Virus record (IMG/VR): IMGVR_UViG_3300037789_000038
Span: 1 to 38,018 of that record
Reading direction: 5' to 3' (one strand)
Origin: a virus
DNA: 38,018 nucleotides
Part shown: piece by piece, positions 18,782 to 36,756 of the stretch
Layout: the number at the start of each line of letters is the position of its first letter
How positions within the stretch are numbered: the stretch's first letter is position 1
Notes under the pieces: model-generated
Databases searched by the model: none
What the model was told of the DNA's origin: nothing
What the model saw: the letters and a program-made list of their open reading frames with translations, nothing else
Position numbers and translations under genes: made by a program

Positions 18782-19113
18782 GTGCATGGCCGATCACGCT
18801 GCAAGAAGCCGCCGAACGCCTACACGCCTCCGAGCGATGGCTACGCGACCACATAAAGACCCACCCTTGCGGCAGAAAGGCAGGCAGGCGCATCATCTTC
18901 ACCGAGCATGATTTCAACCACCTGTTAGGAACGCTGCAATGTCTCTCAAACTCACAAAGCGCGGTGACACCTACTACGTCACCGGCACAATCGGCAACCA
19001 ACGCATCCGAGAAAGTGCGAAAACTTCTGATCGACGGAAAGCAGAAGGCTTGCTTGCGAAGAGAACACAAGAGGCCTGGAACCGTCATATCTATGGCGAG
19101 CGGGAAACGGTGA
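18778..19113 (+). CDS. xis: excisionase-like HTH_17 protein; C-terminal extent uncertain
   Basis: ITLQEAAERLHASERWLRDHI...GRRIIFTEHDFNHLL. ATGA overlap with the upstream gene. The last 175 nt overlap int in another frame. Confidence 0.6.
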   Translation: MSAWPITLQEAAERLHASERWLRDHIKTHPCGRKAGRRIIFTEHDFNHLLGTLQCLSNSQSAVTPTTSPAQSATNASEKVRKLLIDGKQKACLRREHKRPGTVISMASGKR

Positions 19114-19967
19114 CACTAGCCGAGGCCGCGCTGATTTACTGCAGTGGCCGCGAGTTTTCCCCTAGTTATTATGATTGCCTGCTAAAGATTACGGATCGAC
19201 TTGGCGCCCGCCCATTGAGCAGCATCGATCAGCGCACGATGGATGACTATATCGCCACCTACTACCCGTCAGCAAAGCCTGCGACGATCCAGAAGAACGC
19301 CATCACCCCAATTACTGCGATTATGACCGCCGGCGCCAAGCGTGGCTGGTGCGACGTGCCGAAGTTTGAGCGCCCGAAGCAATCTCGCGGCCGCCTGCGC
19401 TATCTCTCGCGGGATGAGGCTGACCGGCTGATTTCTGAGTGCGCCGATCACATTAAGCCGCTTGTTACCTTTCTCATTCACACCGGCGCCCGCCTTGGCG
19501 AAGCGCTTGACCTTACCTGGGATGATGTTGACCTGTCCCGCCGCTTTGTCACGTTTCACGAAACCAAGAACGAAGAAAGCCGCAGCATCCCCCTCAACGG
19601 CACGGCATTTATGGCACTGGCGAACCTACCCGAGCGCGAAGGCGTAGTGTTCCGCAATGACAAGGGCGATCCTTGGTCACGCAAGACCAGCAACCCCATG
19701 AAAACGGGATACAGCGCCGCCTGCCGGCGAGCCGGGATCAAGAATTTTACAGTACACGACTTGCGGCACACGTTTGCCTCATGGCTTGCGCTGGAGAATA
19801 AAAGCCTGCGAACGATTGCGGAATTGCTTGGACATAAAGACCTGAAAATGGTCATGCGATATGCCCACCTGTCGCCCGGGCACCTTAAAGAAGCCGTGAG
19901 TGCAATTGACACACCAGCGACACAGCGCGCCGGCGATCAAGTGCAATCAATTGAAGGAAAACAATAA
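18939..19967 (+). CDS. int: tyrosine integrase
   Basis: C-terminal HDLRHTFASWLA...LLGH...RYAHL catalytic pattern, and an N-terminus MSLKLTKRGDTYYVTG typical of phage integrases. Confidence 0.95.
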   Translation: MSLKLTKRGDTYYVTGTIGNQRIRESAKTSDRRKAEGLLAKRTQEAWNRHIYGERETVTLAEAALIYCSGREFSPSYYDCLLKITDRLGARPLSSIDQRTMDDYIATYYPSAKPATIQKNAITPITAIMTAGAKRGWCDVPKFERPKQSRGRLRYLSRDEADRLISECADHIKPLVTFLIHTGARLGEALDLTWDDVDLSRRFVTFHETKNEESRSIPLNGTAFMALANLPEREGVVFRNDKGDPWSRKTSNPMKTGYSAACRRAGIKNFTVHDLRHTFASWLALENKSLRTIAELLGHKDLKMVMRYAHLSPGHLKEAVSAIDTPATQRAGDQVQSIEGKQ

Positions 19968-23035: not shown

Positions 23036-24046
23036 ATGGCGGTAAAGATCATCGAGGGCGATTGTCGGGAGCGGCTTCAAGAGATTGAGGCCGGTTCCGT
23101 GCATTGCTGCGTGTCGTCGCCGCCGTACTTCGGTTTGCGGGATTACGGCATAGACGGCCAGATCGGGCTTGAGCCGACGCCTGACGAGTTTATCGCGGGC
23201 CTTGTCGACGTGTTCAGCGAGGTTCGTCGGGTTCTGCGCGATGACGGCACCTTGTGGCTCAATCTCGGTGACAGCTACTGGACCGCCAAGGGCAAGAGCT
23301 GCGGCGTTGATCCGAAGCAGAGAGCGCGGCGCGGCTGGGAGCCCCCGCAAGATCGGCCGGCGCCAATGGGAATTAAGGGCAAAGACCTGATCGGCATACC
23401 TTGGATGGCGGCTTTCGCCCTTCGCGCGGACGGCTGGTTTTTGCGCTCGCATATCGTATGGCACAAGCCGAACCCTATGCCGGAGAGTGTCGCGGACCGT
23501 CCGACAAGCGCCCATGAAAGCCTGTTCCTGCTGGCGAAGTCGTCACGGTACTACTATGACGGTGACGCGATCCGCGAGGCCGAGGCGGTGCCGGATTGGG
23601 ATGACGGTTCGCGAGTGTTCGGCGGTGCCAATAAGCACGGTGCGAACGTGAAGCATGGCGACCGGACAACGGGCCGGGTTGCTGAGAAACGCAAGCGGGG
23701 CGTGCCGCCTCGACACTCTCAATATGAAAGCAGCGATCAATCGGGCCTTGATACGGTCCCGCGTGGCGCCGGTCGCAATAAGCGAAACGTATGGACAGTC
23801 GCGACACGGCCTTTTGCCGAGGCCCATTTCGCGACGTTTCCGCCTGGCCTGATCGAGCCGTGTATTCTTGCCGGCTGCCCGAAAGGCGGCACGGTGCTAG
23901 ACCCGTTCGGCGGTGCCGGCACAACCGGCTTAGTTGCTGATCGCCTTGGCCGCGATGCGTTGTTGATCGAATTGAACCCTGAATATGCCGCAATGGCCCG
24001 CCGGCGGATTGCCAGCGATGCGCCGTTGCTGGCCGATGTTTCATAA
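23036..24046 (+). CDS. orphan DNA methyltransferase (N6_N4_Mtase family, beta class; SPPY suggests N4-cytosine)
   Basis: Motif IV CCVSSPPYFGLRDYG at the N-terminus and motif I VLDPFGGAGTTGLVA near the C-terminus. No nuclease partner nearby. Confidence 0.9.
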   Translation: MAVKIIEGDCRERLQEIEAGSVHCCVSSPPYFGLRDYGIDGQIGLEPTPDEFIAGLVDVFSEVRRVLRDDGTLWLNLGDSYWTAKGKSCGVDPKQRARRGWEPPQDRPAPMGIKGKDLIGIPWMAAFALRADGWFLRSHIVWHKPNPMPESVADRPTSAHESLFLLAKSSRYYYDGDAIREAEAVPDWDDGSRVFGGANKHGANVKHGDRTTGRVAEKRKRGVPPRHSQYESSDQSGLDTVPRGAGRNKRNVWTVATRPFAEAHFATFPPGLIEPCILAGCPKGGTVLDPFGGAGTTGLVADRLGRDALLIELNPEYAAMARRRIASDAPLLADVS

Positions 24047-29342: not shown

Positions 29343-31769
29343 TTATTGACCGAAAAGCGCACCAATATCAGGCGCCCTAACCTCATCGCGGCCGGGCCGC
29401 CACCAAAACTCTTGCCCGTATTCCTTGCGCTGCCGTTGCTCCATGCGAGCGAAGGAAGCCGCATAGTTAGGGTCCGTCATCATTTGAATTTGGTCCCAAA
29501 GCATACGGTCCATAACAAGGCGAGAGTACCAAAGGCTTGATCCAGGCGTGTTGTTTTTTACGAAACGGGCCAATTCTTTACCAAAATAGGGATCTTCGCC
29601 GTCAAGCGTTTGGCTAATGTTGGTGCCCGTCAACCGCATGAAATCATCGACAAGCCCACCTGTGGGGCCGCCAACCATCGTCATGTAAAAGCTGCGGTCG
29701 GAGCGATTGAGCCCGGAATAAAGAAAGTCGCCAAGAATGCCAGCGCCACCGCCCTGAACAAATGCCGCACCCCAAAACTTTGCATCGGTCATGTCGCGCG
29801 GATCACGCCCCTTTGCCACGTCTTTCATCTGCATAGCAAGCGCGCCCATAGCCGTCATCCCAATAACCGTGCCGGCGAGATAGCGCCCGTGGTCGCCGCC
29901 CTGGATAGCAGAAACGCCACGCATCAAGTGCGTAGTCATAATCGTGACCGGGAATGTCTTGTACTGCGCCATTGAGCGTACAAACTCGCCAACAAATGTC
30001 CCGGGCTTAGATTGCCCTAAAAGAAGGCTACGCTCTGCGGCGCCCGGTGTCGGAATAGCATAGTCCATTTCCGTGTTGACCATTTCCATAAGACGCGAGG
30101 CCGCGCCCATGTCGGCAACTTCCCCGCTACGCGCTATTTCTTCCGGCCAAATGAATTTCACGCCCTCATGGTCGAGCACATGGTTTTGAATGCGGGCCCA
30201 ATCGTCAGCCGTCACGCCATAGGTTTCAAACGCCCGTTGCAAAGGCGCGTCCAATTCATCGACGCCCTTGCCAATCTGATCTGCCAGATAGCCGAGAAAT
30301 TCCATCCCAAACGCCCATCGACCGGCCTGGGTGTGAGGCGCCAACAACGACGCCCGCATGACAAACTCGGATATACGGCCGGGCAACTCACGCCCCACTA
30401 TCTCCGCTTGGTGTCTATGCGCGCCGGCCGCCCGCATTGTCCATCCTTCCGCCACCATGCCCAGGCGCACCGCCAACTTGCGATCCGCGTCATTGCCGGG
30501 CGCCATGAGGCTTGTGTACCGGCCAATCACCTTGCTTGTCGGCAAGCCGTTCCAGGCCGACGCCGCCCGGACGGTTGCAAAGTCAGATACCGACGAAAGC
30601 ATTGCCGCCCCCAATTGAGCAGACGTAAGCCAGGAGCGAATGCCCCGGCCGGTCGACGCGACAAACTCAGACACGGGCGATTGTGCCCGCCCCTCAACGT
30701 GCTCCCATATCGCTTGCAGGCGGTAGGCTTTCATGCCGTCCACGCCATTCTTCTTTGCCGTATCGACCAACACCCGCGCCGTGTGTTCAGGGTTCGGACC
30801 GAGAATTTCTAGCTTGGCGATATCCCGTGCTAACCCGTCTAAATGCCCCGTCAGCACATCGTAAATTTGGCTGTCACCAACGCCCCACTGCCTATTGAAG
30901 TCCAGCCACGCATCGGCATTGGCCCACCGAAAGGCACGCCGTTCCGACCGGGCATTGGCGACACTCGCCTTGCTCAACTCACCCGGCACCAGCTTATTCA
31001 TGCCATTGGTTGAGATTGTTTCGTATGACGCCGAGATAATCTTGGCCGCCGTCTCAGCGTCCACCATTTCCCCGGTGTCAAAGTCTTTGATAATCAGGCG
31101 CCCCTCATTGAAGGCCTTGTTCATGTAATCTTCAAAAGCGGCCCGCCCGGCCTTTTTAACTTTGCGCGTATCCCATTCCTGCGGCAGCCGCCAATCCTCA
31201 AGATCGGTGATATTGCCGCCGGCAGTGTTAAAGCGCTTGGTCCCGTATTGCGTTGTCTTATTCCAGGCTTCGGCCGCACTGCGCGCTGTCGCATCGCCGG
31301 TGTTTTCGCCATAGAGTTCACGGACAAAGCGCTGCAGGCCAATAGCATCCTGCGACAAGCCGGCCATCTTGGTTCGGAATTGTTCAAGCCCATCAGCGAA
31401 TAAGGCGTGCATCGAGCCCAAGACCGCACGATACCGGCCCTCAACATTAGAGTACCCGGCCATTCCCCAAATATCGCGAGCAAACACTGCTGACACCCCT
31501 GCCGCCCATCCCTTTTTATGGCTTCCGGCTTGTTCGACAACGCGCTCTTGCGCCAGTATTTGCAGCGCCGTTTGTTGTTTCTTCTTAATCGCCCCGCGCT
31601 GCATGTAGTCCGAGGCTTGCTCGGCCGCCTTCGCCAGCGCTTGTTCCGGGCTCATGGTGTCCCGGTTTTGCGCTTCAAACTTCTTAATCAGCCGAAGCGC
31701 CTCATCAGCCTGGGCTTTGGAAATAACGCCAGCCGCTACCCGGTCCAAAAGACATTTTTCAATGCTCAT
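29343..31769 (-). CDS. internal virion / ejection protein (808 aa) with C-terminal hydrophobic segments
   Basis: Position after the other internal virion proteins. Segments GTVIGMTAMGALAMQM and FWGAAFVQGGGAGILGDFLY suggest membrane insertion. Confidence 0.6.
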   Translation of the reverse strand: MSIEKCLLDRVAAGVISKAQADEALRLIKKFEAQNRDTMSPEQALAKAAEQASDYMQRGAIKKKQQTALQILAQERVVEQAGSHKKGWAAGVSAVFARDIWGMAGYSNVEGRYRAVLGSMHALFADGLEQFRTKMAGLSQDAIGLQRFVRELYGENTGDATARSAAEAWNKTTQYGTKRFNTAGGNITDLEDWRLPQEWDTRKVKKAGRAAFEDYMNKAFNEGRLIIKDFDTGEMVDAETAAKIISASYETISTNGMNKLVPGELSKASVANARSERRAFRWANADAWLDFNRQWGVGDSQIYDVLTGHLDGLARDIAKLEILGPNPEHTARVLVDTAKKNGVDGMKAYRLQAIWEHVEGRAQSPVSEFVASTGRGIRSWLTSAQLGAAMLSSVSDFATVRAASAWNGLPTSKVIGRYTSLMAPGNDADRKLAVRLGMVAEGWTMRAAGAHRHQAEIVGRELPGRISEFVMRASLLAPHTQAGRWAFGMEFLGYLADQIGKGVDELDAPLQRAFETYGVTADDWARIQNHVLDHEGVKFIWPEEIARSGEVADMGAASRLMEMVNTEMDYAIPTPGAAERSLLLGQSKPGTFVGEFVRSMAQYKTFPVTIMTTHLMRGVSAIQGGDHGRYLAGTVIGMTAMGALAMQMKDVAKGRDPRDMTDAKFWGAAFVQGGGAGILGDFLYSGLNRSDRSFYMTMVGGPTGGLVDDFMRLTGTNISQTLDGEDPYFGKELARFVKNNTPGSSLWYSRLVMDRMLWDQIQMMTDPNYAASFARMEQRQRKEYGQEFWWRPGRDEVRAPDIGALFGQ

Positions 31770-34108
31770 TCTTGTGGCTCCTTGCCAGCAACACAGGCGT
31801 TTGCAATTTCGTCGGCCACCCGAATTTCGTCCTCTGCCTCATCAAGCAAATCCGCCGCCTTCTTTACACCATCAGGCGTATTCACATCAGGATTTTGGCT
31901 TGCAGCAAGGCGTTGCGCCTCAGTAAATGCCGCGTCATCGGATAGTACATCATCCATGACTTGCTCGGAAACTCTTGCTTTGTCGGCTACCAAGTTCAGT
32001 TGCGCCTTGCGCGGGTCCGTCGCACGGAGCACATCGATAGCACTTGCCGGCGCATCGCCAAAGATATCGGCCCCGGGTTGCGTCTTTTCCGCCTCATCCA
32101 AATAGCCAATCAAGCGATCAGCAATTGACTTGCGCCCGGCCGCACGTTGATAGTTCCCGTCACGATAAAACGACACCAACAATGCCTTTGTCGTGTCCGT
32201 TAGCCCTTCGTTAAACATTTCTCCCTGCGCCATCAAATCGGCCATCTTCATTTTCTCAGCGCGAGACTTTTCGACAATTCGCACCGCATTGATAAGGTCG
32301 GCCGTCACGTCCATGTGAGGCGCAATCTCTCCGCTACCGGCACGCTTCCGCATCCCCGACCAACGCGCCGCCACGTCCTGCAACGCGCCACCGATAGCTT
32401 TAATGTCGTTGTTTGTGCTTTCGAGCAGCTTGCCGATCAAAGTTGGCGCCTCATCACCGTATGCGGCGGCCAGCACCGCGCCTTCAATGCGGCGGATACC
32501 CTGCATGGAAAGGCCGCCTTCTTTCAGGGTCATTGCCCCCTGGTCATTCTTGGGCAAGCCCTTAATAAAGGCGTTCACAAATTTCTGGTTTTGGGCAAGG
32601 CTCACATCGCCGCCCTCGTATAGATCAATGATCCGCCGCACCGCGCCTGCATCTGCCAATGCTTGCTCCATAGCCGACATAGAAAGCGTCGAGGAAGCAT
32701 TGGCCTCTCGGGTAAAGGCTACCCGTTCCTCTGGCGTCAATTGCGTTGTGCGCCGGCGGATCAGCACCGGGTTTTTCATGTTATCGACATTGAAGCCCTG
32801 CGACTTGAGATATTCGCGATACGCTGTCGACTTAGCGCCGCCTTCCCCATGAGCCCGCATAATTGCCAGCGTGCGGCCGTTGCCGCTTTCCACAACGCCA
32901 TCAGGCCCGACGATAGGCGCACCATTGCCCGCTTCCGACGACGCGCCCAGGCGGCCCGGTTCAAGGTTCGCCGCGATATCCTGCACCTGCGTCTCGCCTG
33001 CCGCCCGCGTCCGGTCCCGTGGCTGCAATTCCTGGGGATAAATCGGGTTGATCGTCATATCCTGCGTATTGCTGGTGATAAGCCCGGCGCCCTCTACCAC
33101 CTGCAATTCTGTATCGATGGCGCGGCCGGTCGGCGTAAACACCTGCCCCGCTACTTGTGCCACCGCCGCGTCCGGATCTTGGCGCTGCACTACGGGCTCG
33201 GGCTGTCGTGCCACCGTAGGCCGGCCTTCGGCCAAGTCCATTTCCGCCTGATCGATATTGGCTTCATGCACCCGCTGGTTCTGGAAGCCATGTGGATTTG
33301 TCTCGGCATCATGTAATGCCCGATCCGCAACTCGGACCGCATCAAGTTCATCAAGCGTCAACCCTTCGCCACGGAAAAGACGATACCCGTCAACCGCCCC
33401 ACGCCCGACCATGCCAAGCACGCCCGCACCCAGGCCGGCGGCCAGGATATTGAACATGCTGTTGCCTTCAATCCCGGCGCGCGATTTAAAGTCCGCATTG
33501 CCAAGTTCAATTGCGCCCTGTGTGCCAGCGCCAATTGCGCCTTCCACGGCAAACTGTTTAAGCATCCGTACTGCCAGCCCGCCCGACATGCGCGCCGCAC
33601 CGCCAAGGGGCAGTGTTGCGACGTTCACGGGGTCCGTCATGGCGCCGGCGGCCGCCCCGAAAAAGCCCGCCACGTCTGCGCCCAGGCCAACATCAACCGC
33701 GCTACGCTCATCCAACTCAGTTCGGATAGCCTTGGCGTCAGCCAGTATCTTTTGCTGAATTTGCTCCGGCCTCAGAATGCCGGCGTCCGGGTACTCTTGC
33801 TGCAGAGTGCCCACCAGCGCTTCATAGTTCGCCAGCGCCTTCTCTCGCGTCAGCACCGACTTTGAGCCCGTATTGCGCCCAGGACGCACGGCCAGCGGGT
33901 TTGAGACACGTTGACCGCTTATCTCGGCAATACGCTCTATCTGCCGCTCGTATTCGTTATAAATGGCGCGTTGTTCAGATGAAAATTGCTCAGTACGACG
34001 AAACGCCTCTAACTCTAGGTCGAAGCGTTCACCGGCACCAAGGGGCTTTGCAGAAAGGGGATTGAGAGACACACGATCAAGCCTCCCAAAGCCAATGTCG
34101 AGTAACAT
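31766..34108 (-). CDS. internal virion protein (780 aa) with a central ParB-like segment
   Basis: Gly-rich hydrophobic N-terminal third. Residues about 330-480 contain ELQPRDRTR and VVESGNGRTLAI. Confidence 0.6.
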   Translation of the reverse strand: MLLDIGFGRLDRVSLNPLSAKPLGAGERFDLELEAFRRTEQFSSEQRAIYNEYERQIERIAEISGQRVSNPLAVRPGRNTGSKSVLTREKALANYEALVGTLQQEYPDAGILRPEQIQQKILADAKAIRTELDERSAVDVGLGADVAGFFGAAAGAMTDPVNVATLPLGGAARMSGGLAVRMLKQFAVEGAIGAGTQGAIELGNADFKSRAGIEGNSMFNILAAGLGAGVLGMVGRGAVDGYRLFRGEGLTLDELDAVRVADRALHDAETNPHGFQNQRVHEANIDQAEMDLAEGRPTVARQPEPVVQRQDPDAAVAQVAGQVFTPTGRAIDTELQVVEGAGLITSNTQDMTINPIYPQELQPRDRTRAAGETQVQDIAANLEPGRLGASSEAGNGAPIVGPDGVVESGNGRTLAIMRAHGEGGAKSTAYREYLKSQGFNVDNMKNPVLIRRRTTQLTPEERVAFTREANASSTLSMSAMEQALADAGAVRRIIDLYEGGDVSLAQNQKFVNAFIKGLPKNDQGAMTLKEGGLSMQGIRRIEGAVLAAAYGDEAPTLIGKLLESTNNDIKAIGGALQDVAARWSGMRKRAGSGEIAPHMDVTADLINAVRIVEKSRAEKMKMADLMAQGEMFNEGLTDTTKALLVSFYRDGNYQRAAGRKSIADRLIGYLDEAEKTQPGADIFGDAPASAIDVLRATDPRKAQLNLVADKARVSEQVMDDVLSDDAAFTEAQRLAASQNPDVNTPDGVKKAADLLDEAEDEIRVADEIANACVAGKEPQE

Positions 34109-36285
34109 TATTTTGCTCCCGCTCGGGCGCCCGTCAAAAAGCGATTGGTGACTGTCGACGGAATTTCACGCGGCGCGACGTTGCTAAGATCGAGCAGATA
34201 CCGAGAACCATCGGCGTTCGTTAGTTCCATTCCGCCGATCCGCACTTCATAGCGCCCGTCACCGACCGAAGCTAATTCCCCAAAGTCTCGAATGTCATCT
34301 GCTGTAATCTGCCGACCGTCCCGGGCATACAATGGTTCGCCAAGGTCTGCATCGGTAAGATTAAACATCGTGCGCGCAAAGTCCGAGCTATCCATGCCCG
34401 GCTGCGGCGCAATCATTTTGGCGCCGTTATACTCAACGATATTGCCGACCACCGCCGTAATCGCCCGGTCAAGGCGATCCGGGTCAAGCGTGCCCGTGAA
34501 GTCACCTTTGCTGTTGCTGTCATAGGCATAGACGGCCAGTACCGCATCCGTGATCGCGCCGGCGCTATCCGGGCGGCGCCACAACGCTTGCCGCAACTCC
34601 GTCAATTCAGTGCGGAATGTAGAGTTGTTGGCCGGCAGCACGCCTTTCTCCGACTTAATCACGTCCTGTCCAATAAAGATTTCACGGGCGATTTTCGGCC
34701 GATCAACGGCAATGCCGGCCGCCACCGCAAAGGTACGGCTTTCAGCATCGTTTGACACCAGCGCGTTCAACACCTGCGGCAGCCGGCGAGCACCGAAACC
34801 ATCTGCGAGAGAAGCAGCGAATACGGCTTTGCTGGTCGCATCCATGCTGGCAATCGTGGTCGAAAGCCTATCGACTTCATTTGCCGTGAGAGGGAGCACT
34901 TGGCTTTTCGGCAACCCCTCAAGATCAGCCGTGCGGTCGGCTTGTTCGACACGCTTTTGAAACGAGGCAACAAGGGTATCAGGTTGTGCGAAGTCCAACG
35001 CTTCCAACTCGCCTACTTGCTGCGGGTGCGCTTCGGCGCCGTAAGAAAGCGGGTCCGCATCGATGGCGCGGGCCTTTTCAGCGTTCGCCTTCTGGTACGC
35101 CAACAATCGCTGCACGTCCTCATCATCACCGCCCCCTGCCATGAGAGTGTCGTTGATAGTCGCCATACGCGCCTGTTGCTCGCCAAGCGGCAGACGAGCG
35201 AACGTCGCTACGTCTAGCTGGCGGTCTGCAGCCATCTGCAATTCGCCACTCAATATCGGATCATTCAGGGCCCGCGCTTGTTCGGCATAGGCCGCGATTT
35301 TGCCGGGCGACACCGGAAACCCAAGAGCGAGACGACGCAGGGCCGGCCGCGCTTCGGCTTCCAAAGCCCGCACCTTTGAGTTGCGAATGCTCTCGGCTTC
35401 ACGGATGGCCTCTTGCTGTCGATTGACAATCTGCGCCCGGCGCGCGGCGCTGATACCCGATAACTCCGGGCTGTCGAGGATTTGCTGCATTTCCTTGTTT
35501 GCAGCCTCAACGGCCTCTATGCCGCCGCCCATGCGATGATACGTCTGCAGGGACACATGGGCAATGCCTAGCGCTTCCGCATCGTCGGCAAGCATGTTGC
35601 GTTCAATGTCGGCCAGTTCCGGGGTCATATACCCCTTCGACACAGCGCCTTGCAGGTTTTCCTCAAACTGTTTTGCCAGCCGCCTGTATTCTTCGCCGCC
35701 AGCCTGCCCGACCTTCGCCAATGCCTGCATGTCTTGAATGATCGAGGCACGCGCACCGGCAATCGTTTGGTTCTGTAGCCGCCATGCGTTTTGTCGTTCG
35801 ACATTCAAGATCGCGTTGACGTTCTGCCTCATCAGGCTTTCAAGTTCTAATTCCGCTTCCGCCTTAAATTGATCCGGCACGTTGTTAAGTAGGCTGGTCG
35901 AGAACATGCCCGCCTGTTTTTCAAACTCTAGGCTGTCATCCCCCGTCTGCCGGCGCATTTGCGTGAAGTTCTGGCGCTGATCGTTGATGAAGCTAGCCAT
36001 GTACATTTGCTTGCCAGCGTCATTAAACGCCTTGTCCATCGGCGTATCGCCCGTGCGCGGCTGAAACGTCAGATTGCCATCCTCATCGCGAGCAATGCCC
36101 GCGTTGCGGCCTTCATCGGTTGCGGCATCGATAGCCTGCCGCTCAAGCCGCTGCGCTGTACGGCGCGTGCTTGCCGCAAATGACTGAATACCGCTGGTAA
36201 GTCCCTCCGCAACGCTGCCCGCTCGCACAACGCCAATGTTTTGCAGTATTTCGGAACTCTCTATTGTGGGTAGTGTGTCGGCCAT
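34108..36285 (-). CDS. internal virion protein (725 aa)
   Basis: Large helical protein in the T7 gp15/16-like position. No transglycosylase motif seen. Confidence 0.55.
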   Translation of the reverse strand: MADTLPTIESSEILQNIGVVRAGSVAEGLTSGIQSFAASTRRTAQRLERQAIDAATDEGRNAGIARDEDGNLTFQPRTGDTPMDKAFNDAGKQMYMASFINDQRQNFTQMRRQTGDDSLEFEKQAGMFSTSLLNNVPDQFKAEAELELESLMRQNVNAILNVERQNAWRLQNQTIAGARASIIQDMQALAKVGQAGGEEYRRLAKQFEENLQGAVSKGYMTPELADIERNMLADDAEALGIAHVSLQTYHRMGGGIEAVEAANKEMQQILDSPELSGISAARRAQIVNRQQEAIREAESIRNSKVRALEAEARPALRRLALGFPVSPGKIAAYAEQARALNDPILSGELQMAADRQLDVATFARLPLGEQQARMATINDTLMAGGGDDEDVQRLLAYQKANAEKARAIDADPLSYGAEAHPQQVGELEALDFAQPDTLVASFQKRVEQADRTADLEGLPKSQVLPLTANEVDRLSTTIASMDATSKAVFAASLADGFGARRLPQVLNALVSNDAESRTFAVAAGIAVDRPKIAREIFIGQDVIKSEKGVLPANNSTFRTELTELRQALWRRPDSAGAITDAVLAVYAYDSNSKGDFTGTLDPDRLDRAITAVVGNIVEYNGAKMIAPQPGMDSSDFARTMFNLTDADLGEPLYARDGRQITADDIRDFGELASVGDGRYEVRIGGMELTNADGSRYLLDLSNVAPREIPSTVTNRFLTGARAGAK

Positions 36286-36294
36286 GACGCCCCC

Positions 36295-36756
36295 TTATTC
36301 CAATTCTGCAAACTGACTTGCCGCGCTGCCAAAGCCGGCGACCATCGCGCTTGAAGCAGACGCCCGGGACTGAGCCGCCCCAAGCCCGAAACTACGCTGT
36401 TTTTTCAGGTAATTAAGCTGGCTGATACGAATATCCTTTTCGGCGGCCTTGATTGTCGCGTTGCGGACGGACCCCGAGAACAATTCGCCGCCGCTTCCGG
36501 CGCGGATAGATTGCTGCGTTGCCAGGACCGACGCCAATTGCTGCCGGCGCCGCACTTCGTCTTGAAGTGCTGCAACACGCGCCGTTTCCGCCTCATCCTC
36601 GTACTGCGCCGCTTGGGCCTCATAAGCCTTGCTTTGATTGACCGCACCAACAACCGTTGTGCCGATTGATGCAACCGTTGCCGCCTGGGAAATACCTGCC
36701 GCCGTCGCCGCTGCCGCCGCCTCCGACATGCCCGCCGCTACCAAAATGCTTTCCAT
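36295..36756 (-). CDS. internal virion protein A-like (153 aa)
   Basis: Ala/Gln-rich. Start overlaps the tubular B stop (TAATG). Confidence 0.5.
   Translation of the reverse strand: MESILVAAGMSEAAAAATAAGISQAATVASIGTTVVGAVNQSKAYEAQAAQYEDEAETARVAALQDEVRRRQQLASVLATQQSIRAGSGGELFSGSVRNATIKAAEKDIRISQLNYLKKQRSFGLGAAQSRASASSAMVAGFGSAASQFAELE

Follow-up and report, generated by a model that had tools for sequence, protein, structure and literature searches.

A DdrB-type ParB module in the gp16-slot protein of a temperate epsilon15-like podovirus

The IMG/VR virus record IMGVR_UViG_3300037789_000038, analyzed here over its whole length of 38,018 bp (hereafter the window), is complete, carries direct terminal repeats, and represents a temperate epsilon15-like podovirus, ~38 kb, of Alphaproteobacteria. 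Its late operon encodes a 780-aa protein that occupies the slot of gp16 in Salmonella phage epsilon15 and contains a DdrB-type ParB module. Membership of this protein in the DdrB-ParB family is beyond doubt. Our favored reading, to which we give a probability of roughly 0.6, is that the gp16-slot protein is an ejection protein that delivers the module into the host, where it would act in a nucleoside triphosphate (NTP)-dependent manner to protect the incoming genome.

A reading made from the DNA letters alone (the sequence-only reading) had pointed to a ParB-like segment at positions 32669-33121, which correspond on the minus strand to residues 330-480 of the protein, the peptide that it quoted being residues 357-421. 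Our Pfam search confirmed this segment. Family PF18763 (ddrB-ParB) matched residues 328-454 with an E value of 6.4e-34 and 117.1 bits against a cut-off of 27.6, covering positions 3-121 of the 121 in the model, and 26 of 26 aligned homologues matched the same family. Residues 323-695 were 34% identical to residues 32-421 of P1 DdrB, i.e. its N-terminal ~390 residues (E 5e-51). A tblastn search of phage records revealed 33-36% identity over the same residues to DdrB of P1 and its relatives P7, D6, and SJ46, and likewise to proteins of the small podoviruses Piluca (Alcaligenes phage) and TPWB-05 (Acinetobacter phage).

Conservation was assessed in an alignment of 43 full-length homologues sharing 32-63% identity with the 780-aa protein. 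Invariant throughout were Q362, P363, R364, D365, and R366; V406, E407, S408, G409, N410, and R412; and Y430. The two boxes that the sequence-only reading had singled out are the invariant core of the family. R412 in ESGNGR, the pocket arginine of ParB/sulfiredoxin (Srx) proteins, was invariant in all three alignments. Y430 lies in a helix (residues 425-436) between helix 410-422 and strand 447-453, and D403, conserved in at least 90% of the homologues, follows the APIVG stretch and is tentatively assigned to strand 2 on the wording of PMC5512222. The published hallmarks of the DdrB-ParB domain are present: an arginine in the pocket, an acidic residue that comes after strand 2, and an additional helix bearing a conserved tyrosine. 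Together, the PF18763 match, the homology to DdrB, and the invariant boxes confirm that the ParB-like observation is not due to chance.

The conserved unit extends well beyond the Pfam domain. A profile of residues 312-700 found full-length matches in 7283 cluster representatives (50% identity), 3881 of them at E<=1e-30, and the proteins bearing this module range from ~450 to nearly 5000 residues. Of this stretch, PF18763 covers no more than the first third. Because the profile matched over its whole length, we consider the evolutionary unit to be a ~380-aa module composed of the ParB-like domain and a helical extension.

We constructed an AlphaFold2 model of the 780-aa protein from the 43-sequence alignment, with a mean predicted local distance difference test (pLDDT) score of 82.6. 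The model comprises an all-helical region (residues 9-293), a low-confidence linker (~241-311), an α+β domain (319-453), a helical region modeled at high confidence (459-696), and a tail (700-773). Within the ParB-like domain pLDDT was mostly 87-96, falling to about 72 at residues 361-370. When the full-length and module models were compared with the PDB by Foldseek, the best match was pNOB8 ParB-N (5k5d), with E 0.02-0.05 and a probability of 0.72-0.87. Against BFVD, the matches were DdrB-like and polyvalent proteins (to E 5e-34), followed by dozens of canonical ParB/Srx proteins at E 0.02-0.4 and probability 0.8-1.0. At the sequence level, neither the protein nor the profiles of the module and of the ParB domain alone found a related solved structure in the PDB. 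The ParB-like assignment made in the sequence-only reading is upheld by the PF18763 profile and the DdrB homology, whereas the structure comparison, with 5k5d as the best match, supports the ParB/sulfiredoxin fold weakly.

In the model, the invariant polar residues (QPRDR, ESGNGR, and N470) group in one pocket. ATP and Mg were placed in this pocket in three of three modeling runs, with contacts to residues 363-364, 366, 374, 407-412, and 470. This predicted arrangement is consistent with a nucleotide site in the pocket.

The domain shares its superfamily, by Pfam naming, with the canonical ParB CTPase fold (ParB, Noc, KorB; PMC12704722). The QPR- and GxxR-type boxes are equivalently placed, the modeled NTP sits in the box-lined pocket, and the best PDB fold match is ParB-N. 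The superfamily name is all that speaks for a partition-type ParB that maintains the prophage. In contrast to the canonical proteins, the 780-aa protein did not match the canonical ParB_N family PF02195, no ParA was found in the genome (PF13614 and PF01656 absent), and the gene sits in a late virion operon, coupled to virion genes, rather than in a partition context. Moreover, the phage integrates, as it encodes an integrase. We therefore exclude a ParABS role, the likelihood of which we regard as close to nil. The ParB-CTPase fold was surveyed in 2025 starting from PF02195, and DdrB receives no mention there (PMC12704722).

The 780-aa gene lies in the gp16 slot, between the gp15-slot gene and the gp17 homologue, and prophages of Roseomonas and Rhizobium repeat the window's gene order around the slot. 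To compare the protein with gp16, hidden Markov models (HMMs) of its parts were built without the window's own protein and searched against 1002 six-frame open reading frames (ORFs) drawn from the window, epsilon15, Piluca, TPWB-05, P1, and the Roseomonas and Rhizobium prophages. The HMM of the C-terminal tail matched epsilon15 gp16 at residues 563-617 (E 4.6e-4; best decoy, 0.043). The linker HMM matched only the gp16-slot proteins of three epsilon15-like phages: TPWB-05 (E 2e-4), Piluca (gp047; E 5e-4), and epsilon15 (gp16 residues 470-507; E 4.9e-3), with the next decoy at 1.8. An ending of the form A..C.hydrophobic in an Ala-rich terminal helix was common to the family, epsilon15 gp16, Piluca gp047, and the TPWB-05 protein. 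The spacing from linker to tail is ~55 residues in epsilon15 gp16 versus ~430 in the 780-aa protein, and the difference is the DdrB module. Both epsilon15 gp16 and the window protein are encoded between a gp15-slot gene and a gp17-type gene, and they have the linker motif and the tail in common; gp16 lacks the ParB module, and the two proteins are not similar in sequence overall. As the flanking motifs occur in the same order in the ParB-less gp16, the ~380-aa module looks like cargo inserted in an ejection-protein scaffold.

Alignment by hhalign of the N terminus or of the whole family with gp16-type alignments, the gp16 alignment being shallow and made of close relatives only, gave two short matches of 3-5% probability. 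A search with the Piluca N terminus was dominated by near-identical Acinetobacter prophage proteins and provided no bridge to the 780-aa family. The invariant cysteine of the tail (Cys772 region, 31781-31795, minus strand) lies 6-10 residues from the C terminus, where a disulfide, metal binding, or a targeting signal is possible. A 521-aa variant of epsilon15 gp16 (P0351-P0360) is widespread in Salmonella and Enterobacter prophages and shares about half of the protein at ~90% identity, a pattern suggesting mosaicism of the gp16-slot protein even between closely related phages.

The relatives of the 780-aa protein carry additional domains. In Piluca and TPWB-05, an N terminus matching phrog_1145, the family of epsilon15 gp16 (E ~1e-27 to 1e-30), is followed by an SLT domain and then by the DdrB module. 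These proteins, representatives of the SLT plus DdrB-ParB prophage proteins of Acinetobacter and Alcaligenes, resemble the window protein in their slot in an epsilon15-like genome, the linker motif, the Cys-bearing tail, and the module itself (35% identity, E 3e-58). They differ in their gp16-related N terminus and lytic transglycosylase, whereas the window protein has an N terminus of another family and no cell-wall hydrolase. Relatives with SLT, PBECR3, PBECR1, or ART (ADP-ribosyltransferase) between the N-terminal region and the ParB domain were found, and in other homologues PBECR1 or LPD23 follows the module. These arrangements suggest a carrier whose ends are conserved while the cargo between them varies. 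The sequence-only reading had also linked the segment to polyvalent proteins, and here it was right, given that close homologues add PBECR1, PBECR3, ART, and LPD23 and that proteins of up to ~5000 aa bear the module. If polyvalent means at least two distinct effector-type domains, homologues P0009, P0014, P0061, P0112, and P0057 are polyvalent and the 780-aa protein, with PF18763 only, is not. Its single recognizable effector-type domain makes it the minimal form, composed of a carrier and a DdrB module.

The RNase-like PBECR domains and the ART domain, which are toxin-type domains carried by relatives in the same protein, speak for the possibility that the module is an injected nuclease or NTPase weapon. 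Such a weapon would nick or degrade the DNA of the host or of rival elements, as Osa does, or deplete a nucleotide for takeover of the cell, rather than protect the phage genome. Several ParB/Srx domains are indeed nonspecific nucleases or NTPases. Host DNA degradation and NTP sensing or degradation are among the options of Iyer et al. 2017, who nevertheless prefer NTP sensing to DNase action (PMC5512222). However, this is a temperate phage with an integrase, and hence an injected host-directed DNase would oppose lysogeny. Inspection by eye of the invariant columns in the 43 homologues revealed no nuclease-type metal-binding acidic cluster. We regard a weapon of this kind as quite improbable, though still a rival to be reckoned with.

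The packaging, ejection, ligand, and function that we infer instead for the 780-aa protein, in line with the protective reading, would run as follows. The protein would be packed in the head like the epsilon15 core proteins, with its Gly/Ala-rich helical N-terminal part and its Cys-bearing tail serving as the carrier that places it among them. At infection it would exit with the other ejection proteins, carrying the module to the cytoplasmic face along with the DNA that enters first. Once there, the module would most likely bind a nucleoside triphosphate, using the pocket that the invariant QPRDR and ESGNGR residues make up. Its target would then be either DNA or a host enzyme directed at DNA, and the incoming genome would be shielded in an anti-restriction manner. 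Genetic evidence connects P1 DdrB with protection against EcoB and EcoK restriction. The protein was found in virions as a head-internal protein (PMC9024508), injection was predicted for the class of DdrB-like ParB domains by Iyer et al. 2017 (PMC5512222), and in epsilon15 the internal core proteins are located over the portal and build a tube that crosses the cell envelope (PMC5850374, PMC8954989). By analogy with these systems, delivery to the host and a counter-defence role are plausible. We have modest confidence that the action would be nucleotide-dependent and directed at the entering DNA or at a DNA-targeting defence.

Several of our results weigh against this proposal. BLASTP between the 780-aa protein and epsilon15 gp16 gave an E value of 0.43, the protein did not match phrog_1145, and its N-terminal 245 residues had no detectable similarity to gp16, so that the homology to gp16 is argued from two short motifs and the gene position. 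When the C-terminal tail was modeled in complex with the gp17 homologue, the score was 0.06, leaving this contact unsupported. No Foldseek match to the PDB reached 1e-3, and the values of the ligand models (ATP, 0.87; SAM (S-adenosylmethionine), 0.73; GTP, 0.68) have no validated meaning, with controls close. The hydrophobic helices of residues 136-245 stay under the usual transmembrane threshold; sub-threshold hydrophobicity is expected for proteins that are soluble in the capsid and later enter the membrane. When P1 Hdf, DarA, and DdrA were searched against the window by tblastn, all gave E >0.8, and only DdrB residues 32-421 matched. Finally, the sole role demonstrated for DdrB in P1 is to aid the entry of DarB into the capsid (PMC9024508).

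This documented role would favor a structural or adaptor function, in which the DdrB module is a protein-protein or protein-DNA scaffold in the capsid (for the core stack, the DNA end, or protein packing) and has neither enzymatic nor signaling activity in the host. P1 ddrB is also nonessential (PMC10695390), and the core proteins of epsilon15 are stacked in order over the portal (PMC5850374). However, a dozen polar pocket residues stay unchanged even between distant homologues, and thousands of unrelated architectures include the module, a combination that a ligand or catalytic site fits better than a lineage-specific contact. Besides, the Dar partners Hdf, DarA, and DdrA were undetected, no ORF in the window is long enough for DarB (the largest is 808 aa), and epsilon15 gp16 manages without the module. 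We consider a purely structural function unlikely, although it deserves to be taken seriously.

The comparison with P1 also places limits on how the module could work. P1 DdrB and the window protein have in common a homologous module of ~390 aa in DdrB, consisting of the ParB/Srx domain and its helical extension. In P1, a myovirus, the module is N-terminal, is followed by a C-terminal metallopeptidase region, and works with Hdf, DarA, DdrA, DarB, and Ulx. In the window, by contrast, it is internal to a podovirus ejection protein that has no peptidase. Given that Hdf, DarA, and DdrA are not detectable, the module must operate in a setting other than P1 Dar. We reject membership in the P1 Dar system, Hdf, DarA, and DdrA being undetected (DarB and Ulx were not searched by sequence) and the C-terminal peptidase region of DdrB being absent.

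A more specific version of the protective reading, which we put forward tentatively and would rather bet against, casts the module as a switch gated by NTP and located on the inner side of the membrane. It would engage the leading genome end or a translocating restriction or nuclease complex and so act as a protective roadblock. DdrB-type ParB modules abound in phage virion proteins, and the present protein would make a convenient test case: 780 aa, one module, no other cargo, and a small temperate phage with relatives in culturable Rhizobium, Ensifer, and Azospirillum. If the roadblock version were true, it would offer the simplest natural system for studying the function of DdrB-type ParB domains and the targeting of cargo into podovirus capsids, because the module stands alone between two short carrier motifs.

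As a discovery, our analysis adds little to what was published in 2017, which already covered this architecture, its genomic context, and the hypothesis of injection (PMC5512222). Iyer et al. defined the DdrB-like ParB domain, located it among late genes beside virion proteins, either solo or in polyvalent proteins, cited a lysozyme fusion in Acinetobacter for injection, and proposed an NTP-regulated activity (PMC5512222). The window protein belongs to this domain family and shares the late-gene context beside virion genes and the injection prediction. Our additions are small: the minimal architecture, the placement of the module between two motifs common to the ParB-less gp16, and a conserved unit three times longer than the Pfam domain.

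Table 1. Features of the window discussed in the text (positions in the window)
Feature	Position	Strand	Basis or remark
Tyrosine integrase	18939-19967		marks phage as temperate
808-aa epsilon15 gp17 homologue, core or pilot protein	29343..31769	minus	downstream of 780-aa gene; BLASTP E 5e-32 to gp17
Whole gene, 780 aa, gp16-slot internal virion protein with DdrB-type module	31766..34108	minus	ORF; overlaps with both neighbors
Residues 701-780, acidic C-terminal tail with invariant Cys772	31769..32008	minus	long helix, beta-hairpin 741-750, helix 751-773
Residues 455-700, helical extension always accompanying the ParB domain	32009..32746	minus	aligned to P1 DdrB 167-421
Residues 328-454, DdrB-like ParB/Srx-superfamily domain	32747..33127	minus	PF18763
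Residues 246-322, low-confidence linker	33143..33373	minus	short motif ~278-300 (H..a.d.A...l..G.PV)
Residues 136-245, Gly/Ala-rich moderately hydrophobic helices, candidate membrane-active segment	33374..33703	minus	40% Gly+Ala
Residues 1-135, N-terminal helical region	33704..34108	minus	AlphaFold2 helices 25-136, pLDDT mostly 84-95
725-aa protein, epsilon15 gp15 slot	34108..36285	minus	upstream of 780-aa gene; synteny
153-aa internal virion protein, gp14-like	36295..36756	minus	phrog_418, E 1.7e-6

At E<=1e-5 the 780-aa protein has 749 homologues, most of them encoded by alphaproteobacterial prophages, for example of Rhizobium, Ensifer, Sinorhizobium, Azospirillum, Bosea, and Roseomonas. No Pfam family matched residues 1-322 or 455-780. 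The HMM of residues 1-135 matched family members only, conservation of this region being limited to the alphaproteobacterial prophage family. Residues 136-245 contain the conserved positions G151, D159, and P160, reach Kyte-Doolittle peaks of 1.2-1.6 near residues 145-155 and 222-231, and gave a weak match to phrog_342 (internal virion protein with endolysin domain; E 0.001). The sequence-only reading had described the N-terminal third as Gly-rich and hydrophobic; the stretch is real but confined to these residues. In the ESM Atlas, the N-terminal third (residues 1-322, 33143-34108) had as its nearest neighbors viral proteins that stand alone and are 280-340 aa long (score 0.93-0.94), and the features common to both are labeled membrane-active, which we treat as a lead only. 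These stand-alone neighbors also suggest that the carrier part may be a separate gene in some phages. The helical extension aligned to phrog_5143, phrog_2299, and phrog_14770.

The window has a single long late operon on the minus strand, and its late-gene order is that of epsilon15 genes 1-20. The operon encodes TerS, TerL, the portal, the major capsid protein, gp11-like and gp12-like tail proteins, and the 153-aa internal virion protein, continues with the proteins of 725, 780, and 808 aa, and ends with the tail fibre and lysis genes. The start of the 780-aa gene overlaps the upstream stop (TAATG) and is preceded by a GGGAG Shine-Dalgarno sequence, and its stop overlaps the downstream start (ATGA). 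The 725-, 780-, and 808-aa genes are translationally coupled via their overlaps and Shine-Dalgarno sites. The sequence-only reading had placed the gene among ejection proteins, as the phrog_418 protein, the gp15-slot protein, and the gp17 homologue bear out. It had called the neighbors T7 gp14-16-like; they are virion-internal or ejection genes of the epsilon15 type and have no sequence resemblance to T7 gp14-16.

The 808-aa protein matched phrog_684 (virion structural protein) with E 1.3e-166. For the 725-aa gp15-slot protein, BLASTP found no similarity to epsilon15 gp15, Pfam found no SLT domain, and the match to phrog_35810 was weak (E 0.0038), the latter being a family that the C terminus of epsilon15 gp15 also matches. 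SLT is present in epsilon15 gp15 and in its Roseomonas prophage counterpart; in Piluca and TPWB-05 the gp16-slot protein carries it. The three large internal proteins of the window phage yielded no detectable cell-wall hydrolase.

Two further observations concern the rest of the genome. An orphan DNA methyltransferase (phrog_67, E 1.8e-75) is encoded on the plus strand of the accessory region at 23036-24046 and could be a second anti-restriction device of the same phage. The gene of the gp12-like tail protein (phrog_376), on the minus strand, spans the record ends, running from 805 to 2 and then from 38018 to 36756, with profile positions 5-195 matched at the start of the window and 290-711 at its end. 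This split is consistent with a circularly permuted assembly with terminal repeats.

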